Made by a program: the position numbers
In this document: positions 30,001 to 36,000 of the stretch, in pieces
Layout: every line of letters begins with the position of its first letter
Position numbering within the stretch: position 1 is the stretch's first letter
Source of the DNA: a virus
Taxonomy: Duplodnaviria > Heunggongvirae > Uroviricota > Caudoviricetes
Length of the DNA: 49,166 bases
IMG/VR virus record: IMGVR_UViG_2923307698_000008
Strand: one strand, 5' to 3'

Positions 30001-33000
30001 CCGGAGTTACCGTGCTGCGGCGCGCCAGCTGTTTAATGCGCGGATCCGGAGCATCGTAAGAATCCGGTAACGGAAGCCCTTCACCGTAGGCCATGCCGTT
30101 GGACTGTCCGGCAAGCACAACCACGTAGAACCAGTCCGGCTTAGATGAAGGGCCGACCTGTGGATCTCCTTCAATAGCCACCGCCTGCATCAGTGTGTAC
30201 GGCGTAATGGCAACCGGTCCGCCGTATGGCTGCCAGCCCTCTTTCAGTTTGTGTGTCAGCTTTTCCGCAAGGTCTGACGGCGACGCCGCCCTGACAACAT
30301 CATAGTGTTTAAATGCCATGAATCCTCCCGGCCGGGATAATATTGTGAGTAAAATGAGGAGCGGGCTGAAGTCCGGAAGTTACAGGACAATGGCAGAAGA
30401 GAGACAACAGCCCGCAATACGAAAAAGGCCGCGCTATTGCGCAGAGTGATTACTGTCGGATATTATTCGCCAGCTGAAATATTACTTCACGTTTTGTTGT
30501 TTATTCCTTGCCGCCCGCGTCTCCCTGCGCGGGCTTTTTTTGTCCATAAGAAAGCCCCTCCGGAGAGGGGCTGGAGAGTGGCGCTATGTGCCATTGCATG
30601 GTGCCGGGTGCCTCCCGGTGAATTCAGTACCAGCACCTGAATCCGCGATTATCCCATATACCTACTCGCTGATTGCCCCTCCGCACAGGGGGATTCACCA
30701 TGCCAGTTTCTTTTAACAAACTCCCCGCAAACCAGACAACAGTCAACCGCCTGAATTGTGAGACATTTAAAAAAAAGGCCCGCAAAAGCGAGCCAGGGAA
30801 AATAAGTGTGGCGCGTTGTACTGGATTCGAACCAGTGACCGATTGCTTAGAAGGCAATTGCTCTGTCCGGCTGAGCTAACAACGCAGGATACAGATAATG
30901 GACCGCCTTCGGGGACCCGAACTCCGCGCAACCAGCTTCGAAAGCTGGCGCTCTTTCCTGATGAGCTAATGGCGGTATGTGATGGTGGCCCTTGCTGGAT
31001 TTGAACCAGCGACCTGGCGATTATGAGTCGCTCGCTCTCACCACTGAGCTAAAGGGCCGGGTCAAAAAATAATAATCAGATGAAAATCAATAATCAAGCC
31101 CTTGCCTGGATACATATCTGTCTGGCGGGAAGCCATAATAGCGGTGAAATACAGAAATAAAGTAGGACCAGCTTGAATAACCGCATTTTTCTGCTACAGC
31201 CTGTCCATATCCATGCCGGGAACATAACATATTGACAGCAACACGCATCCGCTCTTCCAGCAACAAGCGACTGAACATGTGCCCTTCATTTTTCAGTTTT
31301 ATCTTTAACAAACTCTCACTCATATGCAGGCGTAACGCAATCGCACCAAGCGTCCAGCTTGCTGATATATCTGTCTGAATTATCGCCCTGACTTTGGCAC
31401 TTATACTGGATAAACATCCACTTAAAAATAATAATATCCGTTCATCTGATTCAAACAGCGACAGGCATGCCATCATAAGAAACATATCCGTGGTATCTCC
31501 GGAAAATCTCTGGCTGGTAATTAAAGCCTCAGCCAACGCAGGGTTGTTGGGTTCCAGTGACAGATAAAGCGGAACGTCAGTCAGATGAGTTCTTGTCAGC
31601 TTATGCTGAATTTCCAGATATTGACTTACTATGGAATGGTTTATATCGAAAATTTTAACTTTGCCATAATGCATAAGGAAAAGCGCCCTGATGCATTTGG
31701 TGGCCAGAACGACTGAGCCGGGCTTAAGTGACAACGTATCCTTTTCAAGAAAAATATTAATTGGGGAGCAAACCATGATAACTGAACAGACAACAACCAT
31801 TATAATTTTACTTTCATTAGCAATTGGTTAGTTCAATTATAGCCCCAAAAGGTAAATTATCATCAACACATAAGCAAAGGACTGACAGGTGCCGCTAACA
31901 CCCACCAGCCGCCCATTTACCACAAATAAAAAAACCTTCAGGACTGAAGGCGTCTGTAACAACCGAACTGATAGTCTGCCAGACCCGCATAACCAGCTGG
32001 GTCAGTATTAACTGGCAGCGCTCGCGTGAAAGGTACGTATTCTGCGCAATCTCCCCGACCGTCGCCGGTTCGGTGACGCTTAATTCATCAAACACAACTC
32101 TGGCGGTTTCTGTCATATCCTGCTGTTTCAGCATGTCTTTTTACCCTTTCCGGTTAACGTGACACACCAATAACTCTTGTCGAAAAAGCCAGCAAGCTGA
32201 AAGACCTGTATTAATAACTACCAGCACATTTAACACACTGCGCTACTTTGCGGGCACAAAAAACCCGCTCAGAGGCGGGGTCAAGCTATGCGGCGAAATA
32301 ACCACTCTTAACAGCATACCTGATTTTTTACGTACGTAAATGCTTTGCCGTGCATATTTTTCATGCAAATGTCACGTCCTGCTATTTTTCAGTCTTATAA
32401 ATTTAAAACCATAGAAAAAATCAATTATGTTTTAAAAATGGATAGGTAAAGAATAACAAGTGACACAGATTCAAACCAAAATGGAAAAGGGTGGCAACCC
32501 ACAAACGCCCACTCCACATCCATGACAATCCATACACAACACCAGATAACGTGGCAAATAATACAAGTAAAGCACCACCTGAATAGTGATAAAAACCAAA
32601 CAACAAAGCCGCCACAATTAATGCAACCAATGGAGACGTTACTTCTGATAGCCGTGATTGAATATACCCTCTAAATAATGATTCCTCTGCCAGAGACACA
32701 AAAAACAAATTAGCCAATATAAACTCTGGCAACCACTCAGGAAAATGAATCTCTGGCTTTAATCCACCAAAAAAAACAGCCAAAAACAGGATAAGAGGAA
32801 CAGAGAGCGACAGAGCCCCCCACTTCCACAAAGACACTTCTGATTTTACTTCTTTTTTAAACAAAGAAGATGTACACAGGACTAACAAAAATGGCACCAG
32901 CGCTTTATCAAAATTAAAATACATTGTATAGGGAGTACTTTGAGGGCCAACAGTAACAGAATTTAGCACTACAGGATTGTGAAACCCTGGCCATAGATGG

Positions 33001-36000
33001 AAAAATAATGCTATGGCTGATAAAACTATGCCAACTTCATATATAGATTTAGCCCAGGCGTTATATTTCCAGTTGAACTTCAAAATAATAAAAAAAACGA
33101 TTGTAGCAACAAAAAATAACACCGACCAATCAATAATATCATTAAGCACAGCCAGGACAACAGACACCGTCAACAATGAAAAAGCCACTACCTTATGCCA
33201 ACTGAGAGTTGACAGTGACAGTACTAACACAATCCACATAAGCACTCCTTTTATTTAATGATGAAGATTGATTATCAATATTTTCAATTCACCAGGCAAC
33301 ATTTTATCCACCTTCCACAATACATGACCATCAAAAAATAAACATGTTAATTATAAACACAGAAAACATAACCCTCATCACTATATATCCCTACCGCATA
33401 TCCATATCTAACCGGACATTCAGAGCCATAAGCATTCCTTCAATAATACCTTCCGCTTTATAAAGCCTTTTACCAATAAGCCCATCAGAACATCTATGCT
33501 TACGTGCAAGAGCCATAAATGTCATTCCACCTACGTAATAATCCACCAACAAATCGTGCAAATACTGATTATTCTTGTTTAATCGTGCCATACAACCACA
33601 AATTATCATGGCGTCATCATCAGAACACTGAGGACGTGATTTCACTTTAGTCGGGATTAATCCTTTAAAACCAGCAGCTATCGAGGGCCATGTTACATCT
33701 TCATGATTATTTGCTGCCCATGCCCCCCATCGCTCAAGAACCATCTGGATATCACGCGCCATCGTTACCACCTCTGATTTCGTAAATCTTCACGCCCAGC
33801 CGTCCACCTGGCACAGGCTGACCGCGCACAATATTGATTTCATCAAACTGCTCGTCATCAATGAGCACTTCCGCATGCGTCAGCGCATCCAGCGGTGCTT
33901 TCAGAATGTTGTCCAGGTCACGGCGGCGCTTATCCGGTGGTTCTGCAATAATTTTTATTGCCAGCCGTCCGGACAGGCTTAATTTCAGCCGCTGCTGGCG
34001 AACAATAAGCGCCACAGCCCGGCGATAACGCTCACCGGCTTTTGATACAAAATATGTGCTGCCACGACGTCGCCAGTAGGTGTTCACCGTCGGCGGGTAA
34101 GGCAAAACAAACTCTATACGCATCAGTAACCTCTTTTACCCGAGCACGCCGGTTGCAAAAGCGTGATCAAGAAAACGAAAAATTAAATCAACCTGGGAAC
34201 CATGCTTTTCTTCGAACGCCAGCGGATCCGCATGAAGCTCGTTGTGATGCTCCCGACACAGCGGTAGCGTGAAAATATCGTGGGATTTTGTTCCCATTCC
34301 ACCCTGACCATGACCAATCAGATGATGAGGATCGTCCGCTGGCTTACCACAACACGCACACGGCTGTGTCTTTACCCAGCGTGTGTATTTCTCATTTACC
34401 CAGCGGCGACGTTTAGGTCGTTTCATGAAGGATTTCGGAGACTCCGGATCAACGGCAATGCTGACCACCGTCTTTTCCTGTGGTGGGTTCTGTTGCTGGT
34501 GGGTGTGAGGCGGTAGCGCAATATTTTTTGTGCGCTGCTTCAGTATGCTGGTGGCGGTCTGTTCTCCCAGTATGATGTCACTTTCACGGTATACGGAGCG
34601 GATTTTTTCCGCCGGTAATCCCAGAGAACGACGCGATACTGCCTCAGGTAATGCGTCCACCACCTGATTGCAGACTGCCCACCAGGATAATTCAGCCAAC
34701 GATAATTCCCGTTCCTGTATGCCATTCATTGCGTGGCGGATGACGTCAATCATCCATGCTGACAGGTTTTGTTGAGCAAGTTGCTCAAGTGATTCGGATG
34801 TCTGGTCGCGCAGCTGGTTGTCGCAGTGCCAGCACAACACCATCGCGCCGGTACCGTAACGATGTATGACAGTTTCGCTGTGATGATAATCACCATGAGG
34901 CCACTGGCAGGATTTAACGTGACGTAATAACCAGTCAGACAGTGCACCAGCGCCACCAGCAGCACGAATCACACGCTCATTGCTGAAAAATGGCAGTAAT
35001 GATTTATCTTCCGCCAGCGGCTGGCGAACGGCAGGAACGACCCCGGACGGCAGATTACGCATGCTTTTCGGTTCAGACTCCACCAGCACCCTGCCGCCAT
35101 GAAATACCCGCATGGATTCACGGCCTGGCTTAACGATAACCAGACCGAGTTCCGGTACCGGAACAGGTCGAAGTAATACCCGCACATTACCTCCAGATCC
35201 GTTGCTGGAATGTGCGGGACGGACGCGGTGGCCGTTCGGAGTAAGGGAGCCTGACGGAGATTATCCAGTGACGGTAGTCGAGGCTAAGGGCTTTTTTAAC
35301 CTCGCATCCGCGCCTGCGGTAACACTGAATGAGCCATTCGGCCTGTTCTTCAGTGCATGGGGGATGCTGGTACCAGTCAGATTTGAATGCGTGAAAACAC
35401 CGTCCGCGCCTGCTGGCAAAGACGGCAGAATCATCAGAATTGTATAATTTGGTATCGTGCGCCATCGGTTGTCTCTGCTGGCGCAGCAGGTGCCAGTTGT
35501 TCAGGCTGGCGTGCGAATTGTAAACCAGAATGCCAGGAAAAAACAAAACCCGCCGAAGCGGGTTAAGTGCGGGTGCGTTGAGGATGCCTGATTCATCAGA
35601 GGTGGCGAGGGATTTCTCCCCCGCCAGGTCTCTTACTCCTCAGGTTCGTAAGCTGTGAAGACAGCGACCTCCGTCTGGCCGGTTCGGACTCGTACCTCGC
35701 AGAGGTCTTTCCTCGTTACCAGTGCCGTCACTATGACGGTTAAACAGATGACGATCAGGGCGATTAACATCGCCTTTTGCTGCTTCATAGCCTGCTTCTC
35801 CTTGCCTTTCGGCACGTAAGAGGCTAACCTAGATTTGCCGTTCATAGATTGAGCCTCAGATTAATGTTAAGCGTCTTGCAGGACGCGTAATGTTAACTGG
35901 GGCTTTTCTCTATCTGCCGTTGGTGTTCATGCCCGAGGCAGATAGCCTCAAGCACCCGCAGCTATTCTACTTAACTTCCCATTACCTCGCCAATATGAAA

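Follow-up and report, generated by a model that had tools for sequence, protein, structure and literature searches.

The 49,166-nucleotide sequence of IMG/VR virus record IMGVR_UViG_2923307698_000008 (hereafter the window, meaning the whole stretch of DNA that was analysed) carries, between the antiterminator gene Q and a group of three tRNA genes, a 2.3-kb block (31087-33390) with three open reading frames (ORFs), which encode an intramembrane protease of the CPBP family, a small winged-helix protein and an AraC-family regulator. The protease gene, Z1787, and the regulator gene, psrA, are two previously studied, independently acquired cargo genes, and they flank a predicted late promoter and a broken backbone gene. 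Considered as a whole, the 2.3 kb is probably not a functional cassette but a mosaic, located between Q and the tRNAs in a defective lambdoid prophage of the Sp4/CP-933N type from enterohaemorrhagic Escherichia coli (EHEC).

Four pieces would make up the mosaic. The first is an AT-rich insert of ~1 kb (33390-32341) that bears Z1787 and lies between a Q933-family Q gene and what appears to be its cognate late promoter, PR'. The second is PR' itself with a leader of ~50 nt that would end in a terminator hairpin (32340-32258). The third is a backbone winged-helix ORF of 65 amino acids (aa), presumably pseudogenised through a 1-nt deletion, and the fourth is psrA, carried on what is likely a second, independent AT-rich insert. 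The coordinates of these and of the flanking features are collected in Table 1.

Table 1. Features of the Q-to-tRNA region and its flanks in window coordinates
Feature	Coordinates	Strand	Basis or content
Antiterminator Q, Q21/Q933 family	33391..33762	-	Pfam Phage_antitermQ PF06530, E 4.9e-52
Q-protease gap, AT-rich (GC 0.29), candidate protease promoter	33240..33390	-	Sigma-70-like hexamers, AGGAG ribosome-binding site
Z1787/ECs1085, CPBP (Rce1-like) intramembrane glutamic protease, 272 aa	32421..33239	-	Pfam, motifs, fold, primers
PR' homologue	32313..32340	-	-35 TTTACG (32340-32335), -10 TATGCT (32318-32313); aligns with Sp5 promoter
Predicted PR' leader, ~50 nt	32258..32307	-	5' hairpin and terminator hairpin CCCGC-CTCTGA-GCGGG (32279-32264), then six T
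Backbone small winged-helix ORF, 79 aa as read here, 65 aa when intact	31895..32134	-	RefSeq, alignments, phrog_331
Terminator-like hairpin at intact small-ORF end	31927..31951	-	Fold -8.3 kcal/mol, z-score -2.5; terminator scan
Candidate psrA promoter, best sigma-70-like site of the region	31836..31863	-	ATGATA, 16 nt, TATAAT; 10/12 matches
psrA (Z1789/ECs1087), AraC/XylS-family, YdeO/GadX-like regulator, 237 aa	31087..31800	-	Helix-turn-helix profiles, identity with ECs_1087
tRNAs ileZ, argN, argO	30809..31058	-	Promoter-like site 31097-31069
Empty toxin-cargo slot, stx2AB insertion point in Sp5	30765..30768	.	blastn breakpoints
STnc100-family small RNA element	30542..30732	-	Rfam RF02076, 138 bits versus gathering 47; between argO and esterase gene
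Sialate O-acetylesterase-like gene, 616 aa, ECs_1088 in Sakai Sp4	28469..30319	-	DUF1737, SASA, DUF6645

Composition and distribution of the block

Judged from its sequence, the window is a defective lambdoid prophage of the Sp4/CP-933N type from EHEC O157:H7. Many E. coli O157:H7 genomes contain a chromosomal prophage region to which the block is 99.8-100% identical, and its identity to ECs_1084-1087 of Sakai Sp4 is 99.9-100%; in Sakai Sp4 the gene order is ECs_1084 (Q), ECs_1085, ECs_1086, ECs_1087, ileZ, argN, argO, ECs_1088. A local tblastn search against Sakai Sp4 found both the protease and the AraC protein 100% identical, and the Sakai annotation lists ECs_1085 as 'CAAX amino terminal protease family' and ECs_1087 as 'AraC-family transcriptional regulator'. 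Z numbers were given to the window genes through primers, an accession number and neighbouring genes. The Q protein, labelled 'antiterminator Q family protein' by RefSeq, aligns closely over its whole length with Q933 of the Stx2a phage Sp5.

An earlier reading of this DNA, the first-pass annotation, had described three genes between Q and the tRNAs in an AT-rich block foreign to the phage backbone. The ORFs are genuine, and all three lie on the minus strand with Q on one side and the three tRNAs on the other. Foreign origin suits two of them: G+C content (GC) is 0.36 in the protease insert and 0.41 in psrA with its upstream and promoter region, as expected of AT-rich cargo, but 0.49 in the segment of the small ORF, which belongs to the backbone; the whole window has a GC of 0.51.

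Rather than foreign cargo, the small ORF is a widespread lambdoid backbone gene, and it is a pseudogene here. Of 5,426 complete E. coli genomes, about 2,158 contain its DNA segment, a far larger number than for either neighbour. One G is missing between 31988 and 31987 in the window copy, which remains 98-100% identical to intact 65-aa copies through residue 49 and then changes frame; in the intact frame the stop would fall at 31940-31938. RefSeq labels the ORF 'TrmB family transcriptional regulator, frameshifted'. The 79-aa ORF had no Pfam match at E 0.01 or better, the intact 65-aa form scored 18 bits against TrmB (E 0.0026), below the cutoff of 25.6, and the protein is assigned to phrog_331, of unknown function. 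The 1-nt deletion is present in O157:H7 copies, which RefSeq annotates as frameshifted; in O145, O111:H8 and several unserotyped strains the block is 1 nt longer and the small ORF is annotated as an ordinary hypothetical protein.

The distribution of the pieces is uneven. The whole block occurs in 539 genomes and the junction of Q and the protease in 571, while a psr-like gene was found in 926 genomes, at 1,545 places. Among 43 IMG/VR loci with a protease homologue (47-100% identity), 20 have psr, 22 do not and one is too short, so that 22 of the 42 assessable loci lack it; five of the loci without psr carry a 100% identical protease. The viral contigs are redundant and come mostly from E. coli isolates, and these fractions are therefore rough.

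The regulator gene likewise occurs apart from the protease, behind at least four other antiterminators. In AR_0013 another Q21-family Q is followed by the small ORF, psr and the tRNAs; ETEC1748 has a larger, differently annotated Q protein; a DUF1133 protein takes the Q position in OkiPb01676, which carries subAB past the tRNAs; phiSTEC1575-Stx2k has a larger 'antitermination protein' and stx2k past the tRNAs; and in Sakai Sp11 the order is ECs_2193, ECs_2192, ECs_2191, ileZ, argO. The PatE-like protein ECs_0287 of Sp1, 37% identical to the window AraC protein, also has no protease nearby. Conversely, GB089 has the protease without psr, with a partial DNA methylase gene at the psr position, and in Sakai Sp9, which has no protease, a DNA methylase fills the psr slot. 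The position after the small ORF is accordingly a variable slot that holds psr or a DNA methylase.

These counts bear on the proposal that the protease, the small helix-turn-helix protein and the AraC regulator are inherited and function as a single module, whether for membrane defence coupled to induction or as a regulator cassette, which we consider extremely improbable. In its favour, the ORFs lie side by side in one orientation, and 539 E. coli genomes, most of them of the EHEC serogroups O157, O26, O111, O145 and O103, have all three together. Those co-occurrences, however, are near-identical copies (99-100%) of one prophage lineage and therefore show linkage, not selection for the combination. 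Each piece is also found without the others, the middle gene is a backbone gene and a pseudogene in O157:H7, and a predicted promoter and terminator hairpin part the protease from the other two genes. No PADLOC model supported a defence module: in searches of PADLOC-DB 2.0 neither the protease nor the AraC protein matched any model, and the small ORF gave one marginal match (E 0.0035). The first-pass annotation had presented the three genes as an undescribed system, possibly coupling defence to induction. That idea does not survive, given that both cargo genes are published, that the genes do not keep together (psr-like genes in 926 genomes against 539 for the full block), and that no defence model fits. 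Its other suggestion, of a virulence regulator cassette, does suit psrA, the AraC gene.

The predicted late promoter PR' and its leader

Where late transcription begins within the block was assessed by comparison with Sp5, in which the ends of the PR' transcript have been determined by dRNA-seq and Term-seq, with the 3' end of tR' 258 nt downstream of PR' (Sy et al. 2020, PMC7547250). The coordinates of the paper and of the current Sp5 record differ by 142 bp, an offset that we inferred here. With this offset, the Sp5 3' end is the last T of the tR' T run and the start lies 6-7 nt past a TATCAT hexamer directly after Q933.

Window positions 32340-32258 align base for base with the Sp5 promoter, through the -35, the -10, the initial transcribed AAGAGTGGTTA and the hairpin with its T run. 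The -35 of this PR' homologue falls inside a perfect 14-bp palindrome, TTTACGTACGTAAA (32327-32340), and the predicted transcription start is at about 32307/32306 on the minus strand. The leader that would follow folds at -14.9 kcal/mol, and the Sp5 leader takes the same two-hairpin shape. In Sp5 the -35 palindrome reads TTTACGATCGTAAA, and the more divergent Q of AR_0013 is followed in the same place by a different near-palindrome, GCGGTCCGC. The palindrome could be a binding element for this family of Q proteins.

What differs among loci is the place of this sequence relative to Q. It stands directly after Q in Sp5 and AR_0013; in the window, Sakai Sp4 and GB089 the protease precedes it. Only loci with this Q family have the sequence 5' of the hairpin in common; where the antiterminator is of another type, just the hairpin and the DNA beyond it are shared, and the leader hairpin is conserved behind five different antiterminators. 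The hairpin at 32279-32264, proposed earlier as a terminator private to the protease, was consequently rejected in that role: it lies downstream of PR' as part of the PR' leader, in shared backbone DNA found behind many antiterminators.

We also weighed the arrangement in which PR' lies in the AT-rich gap just after Q, so that the protease would be the first Q-dependent late gene and be expressed like stx. PR' does follow Q directly in most lambdoid phages, and the 151-bp gap contains three sigma-70-like sites with 9/12 matches (33330-33301, 33299-33271 and 33287-33258), with no terminator-like site found ahead of the protease by a terminator scan of the gap. The gap, however, is dissimilar to the mapped Sp5 PR', while the sequence past the protease is similar to it in palindrome, -10, AAGAGTGGTTA and hairpin. 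At a locus whose protease is 59-60% identical, the gap between Q and protease is unrelated in sequence, yet the order is again Q, protease, then TTTACGTACGTAAA...GATAAGAGTG, with the PR'-like motif 3' of the protease. The order of Q, protease and PR' motif recurs in 41 of the 43 viral loci, where the upstream Q belongs to this family and the palindromic -35 motif lies 80-100 bp past the protease stop, and it holds even for viral protease alleles that are 61-63% identical. A PR' in the gap is therefore very unlikely.

Going by the homology with Sp5, the most likely start of late transcription is within the block and downstream of the protease gene. Since the protease gene lies between Q and PR', it would be upstream of late transcription, with psrA and the tRNAs downstream. 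This is at odds with the previous placement of the protease in the Q-dependent late region.

The region resembles the late leader from PR' to tR' that Stx phages carry, known as the StxS locus in Sp5 and Sp15 (PMC7547250): the -35, -10, start region and first hairpin are homologous and the Q proteins belong to the same family. Unlike Sp5, the window lacks an insert of ~190 nt that in Sp5 carries the short StxS RNA and tR', the protease gene separates the promoter from Q, and no stx genes follow the tRNAs.

From this layout a model of expression can be proposed. In the lysogen, each cargo gene would be transcribed from its own promoter. After induction, Z1787 would be read together with Q on the early rightward transcript, as there is no terminator between them, while psrA, the tRNAs and the late genes would need Q-modified polymerase from PR' to pass the terminator-like hairpins ahead of psrA, the tRNAs and the esterase gene (32279-32264, 31951-31934, 30794-30777, 30572-30553 and 30444-30429). 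Under this model it is psrA, not Z1787, that is predicted to be boosted by Q antitermination at induction, which would tie induction to control of the glutamate decarboxylase (GAD) regulon and of type III secretion.

The cargo genes Z1787 and psrA

The protease ORF matches the Pfam family Rce1-like/CPBP (PF02517) at 70.6 bits (cutoff 22.4, E 1.4e-19). In an alignment of 26 sequences, 47-84% identical to the window protein, E187, E188, R192, F216, H220 and H255 are invariant and N259 is nearly so (at least 90% conserved), and the conserved residues form the motifs EExxxR, FxxxH and HxxxN. The first-pass statement that the protein has all three CPBP motifs thus holds on formal alignment, and its ribosome-binding site was also confirmed, as AGGAG 6 nt 5' of the ATG at 33239. 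This ATG (272 aa) is a more likely start than the GTG at 33245 (274 aa).

An AlphaFold2 model of the protein (predicted local distance difference test score 90.6, predicted TM-score 0.89) shows eight or nine long helices and a short beta region. The top two Foldseek hits in the PDB were SpdC (6u0o_A, probability 0.99) and Rce1 (4cad, probability 0.80), both with weak E-values of 0.04-0.1, and a sequence search of the PDB using the protease gave no match. The Pfam domain, the three motifs and the fold are shared with the CPBP/type II CAAX prenyl endopeptidase superfamily, which includes Rce1 and Staphylococcus aureus SpdC. Identity to these solved members is only 13-17%, with TM-scores of 0.36-0.49, and the enterobacterial group has a feature of its own relative to them, a conserved N-terminal half with a beta-hairpin region at residues about 83-119. 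Membership of the Z1787 protein in the CPBP family is solid, while proteolysis itself is predicted from the motifs and the model.

This protein has been studied before. Its sequence in the window equals AAG55891 of CP-933N, and the published Z1787 primers for reverse-transcription PCR match the ORF exactly at 33222-33202 and 32728-32747. Jandu et al. 2009 (PMC2654852) investigated Z1787, in O-island 50, as a putative virulence protease. Its mRNA was detectable in uninduced cultured EHEC and rose about 2.7-fold upon contact with epithelial cells, and after lambda Red deletion of the gene EHEC no longer inhibited the STAT-1 phosphorylation induced by interferon-gamma; complementation was only partial, as was transfer of the phenotype to E. 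coli HB101 on a plasmid (PMC2654852). The gene is the same in both studies and the two views of its product differ: the paper regards it as a possibly released protease, whereas the sequence and model here point to an integral membrane CPBP enzyme.

The published deletion lies ~80 bp upstream of the predicted PR' and ~620 bp upstream of psrA, and for this reason the partially complemented phenotype deserves re-examination for polar effects. The deletion could, indirectly or through polarity, have affected the neighbouring PR' leader, psrA and the tRNAs, in which case the STAT-1 phenotype would not stem from the protease acting on the host. Such an explanation would suit the partial complementation, the closeness of PR' and psrA (80-620 bp downstream of the deleted gene) and the modelled polytopic membrane protein, which is a poor fit with release. 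Nevertheless, plasmid-borne Z1787 partly confers the phenotype on HB101 (PMC2654852), which suggests some direct contribution, and we regard a purely polar origin as possible but somewhat unlikely.

Homologues of equal length and ~50% identity are widespread in Enterobacterales. Those of Enterobacter, Salmonella and Photorhabdus are single genes amid unrelated chromosomal housekeeping or transport genes, and none of the chromosomal homologues examined in these genera adjoins a phage, AraC or bacteriocin gene. The Q-linked subgroup consists of the prophage copies, which are 59-100% identical. A literature search on CPBP proteases in E. coli prophages returned nothing relevant.

Some Gram-positive CPBP/'Abi' proteins act in bacteriocin self-immunity. 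By analogy, Z1787 might serve lysogenic conversion as an immunity or exclusion protein against a bacteriocin, a membrane-acting toxin or a superinfecting phage, a role that appears quite unlikely. The intact catalytic motifs would be in keeping with it, as would the tight retention of the gene beside one Q family even at 60% protein identity, its expression in the lysogen (PMC2654852) and the wide distribution in Enterobacterales of ~50% identical relatives, membrane proteins encoded by single genes. Against it, the genes next to the protease include none for a bacteriocin or toxin, either in the window or in those chromosomal relatives that were examined, and PADLOC gives no match for the protease. 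Broader than this, and speculative, is the view that Z1787-type CPBP proteases are a lysogen-expressed class of cargo that travels with Q933-family antiterminators, always between Q and PR', diverged to ~60% identity and with a real membrane function for the lysogen, separate from PsrA; that function would be exclusion or immunity, or the processing of an envelope or secreted factor behind the STAT-1 effect. We consider it unlikely.

The AraC ORF scores 36.6 bits against HTH_18 (cutoff 33.6) and 35.3 bits against HTH_AraC (cutoff 26.6), with the helix-turn-helix at the C terminus, and its nearest NCBIfam models are YdeO (E 8.9e-30) and GadX. The protein is 100% identical to ECs_1087 of Sakai Sp4, a gene that a 2026 paper names 'psrA (ecs1087, Sp4)', and reviews place PsrA as z1789 in O-island 50/CP-933N. 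According to a 2025 paper, z1789 is a transcriptional regulator gene separated by a small RNA (sRNA) from the esterase gene z1793, and the window has the same arrangement of z1789, sRNA and z1793. On this identity and context, the AraC gene is the characterised psrA. Among the protein-cluster names for the AraC protein, 'PsrA' appears nowhere. Compared with PsrA of EHEC O157:H7, which belongs with PsrB and PatE to the prophage-encoded secretion regulator (Psr) family, it is the same gene with the same neighbours (tRNAs and esterase) and no sequence difference.

Reviews describe PsrA as raising the expression of gadE and yhiF, through which it represses type III secretion of the enterocyte effacement locus (LEE) and feeds the GAD acid-resistance regulon; YdeO and GadX as nearest models are consistent with this action. 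The start codon differs between annotations, with 237 aa in RefSeq and 195 aa in the original Sakai annotation, and the 237-aa start is favoured by full-length alignments to YdeO and the PatE-like protein.

Naming is inconsistent across strains. The reviews locate psrA in OI-50/CP-933N and psrB (z2104) in OI-57 of EDL933. In Sakai, the copies lie in Sp4 (ECs_1087) and in Sp11 (ECs_2191, beside pchB). We sought psrB in Sakai Sp9, where a DNA methylase occupies the position, and then found the paralogue in Sp11. ECs_2191 is 89.7% identical to the window AraC protein over 195 aa, the published figure for PsrB is 90%, and we take ECs_2191 to be PsrB. A check of the regulator's relatives argues in the same direction as the genome counts: the AraC gene matches a characterised regulator, and neither its characterised paralogue PsrB (taken as ECs_2191) nor the PatE-like ECs_0287 has a protease neighbour. 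The sRNA HnrS, which affects psrA expression, was considered as a possible resident of the block and ruled out, being encoded in Sp9, Sp10 and Sp12.

Some considerations weigh against the account of the block given here. The phenotype of Z1787 comes from a single study with partial complementation, the function of PsrA is drawn from two reviews and one 2026 paper, and the assignment of ECs_2191 as PsrB is based on the agreement of 89.7% with the published '90%'. PR' is assigned by homology to Sp5, and the window -10, TATGCT, is weaker than TATCAT of Sp5. Finally, the first hairpin of Sp5 is evidently leaky, given the reported 258-nt RNA, so a terminator role for the window leader hairpin is one that we infer.

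tRNAs, the stx slot and other regions of the prophage

The EHEC literature already covers both cargo genes and the tRNAs, as well as the neighbouring sRNA interval and the type of esterase gene. For the tRNA at 30983-31058 (minus strand), ARAGORN gives Met(CAU), while RefSeq and Sakai list ileZ, a tRNA-Ile with a CAU anticodon.

The block had initially been taken to sit in the position equivalent to stx. In blastn comparison with Sp5, window 31061-30768 corresponds to the Sp5 tRNAs and window 30765-30595 to the DNA past stx2B, which puts stx2AB of Sp5 past the tRNAs, at 30768/30765. The genes stx2k and subAB occupy the same slot past the tRNAs in phages with psr upstream of the tRNAs. As stx2AB, stx2k and subAB all come after the tRNAs and the block before them, the block is not stx-equivalent; by these alignments, the true stx slot is past the tRNAs and is empty here.

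Beyond the slot, the STnc100 element is flanked by terminator-like hairpins, and a 71% identical copy lies after stx2B in Sp5. The oxygen-regulated sRNA EvrS (154 nt) was mapped between z1789 and z1793 in the 2025 paper, and the STnc100 element is in the same interval as EvrS, the two being compared at the level of the interval. The esterase-like gene that follows is taken to be the first gene of the late region.

Other parts of the prophage were noted. A very AT-rich early-region gene at 36393-37166 on the plus strand (GC about 0.31-0.37), which is ECs_1077 in Sakai, encodes a 257-aa protein annotated as an alpha/beta hydrolase and seems to be a further, separate piece of cargo. A relationship of this gene to ECs_0285, which lies beside the PatE-like gene, was ruled out, as the two have no similarity. 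A hok/sok-type toxin-antitoxin pair lies at 35633-35957 (minus strand), with an Rfam sok match of 107 bits at 35783-35957; its equivalent in a near-identical O157:H7 prophage is annotated hokD. A weak isrK-like match at 35543-35624 (E 0.011) is below threshold.

A close relative has pseudogenes for both lysozyme and terminase. Window intervals 24849-28342 and 15198-16507 were noted in a comparison with Sakai Sp4: a segment of 3.5 kb, matching Sakai 23203-26697 (pchA, lysis genes and the holin start), has the opposite orientation, and IS629-like pieces are present elsewhere in the window. The prophage is thus rearranged between strains.

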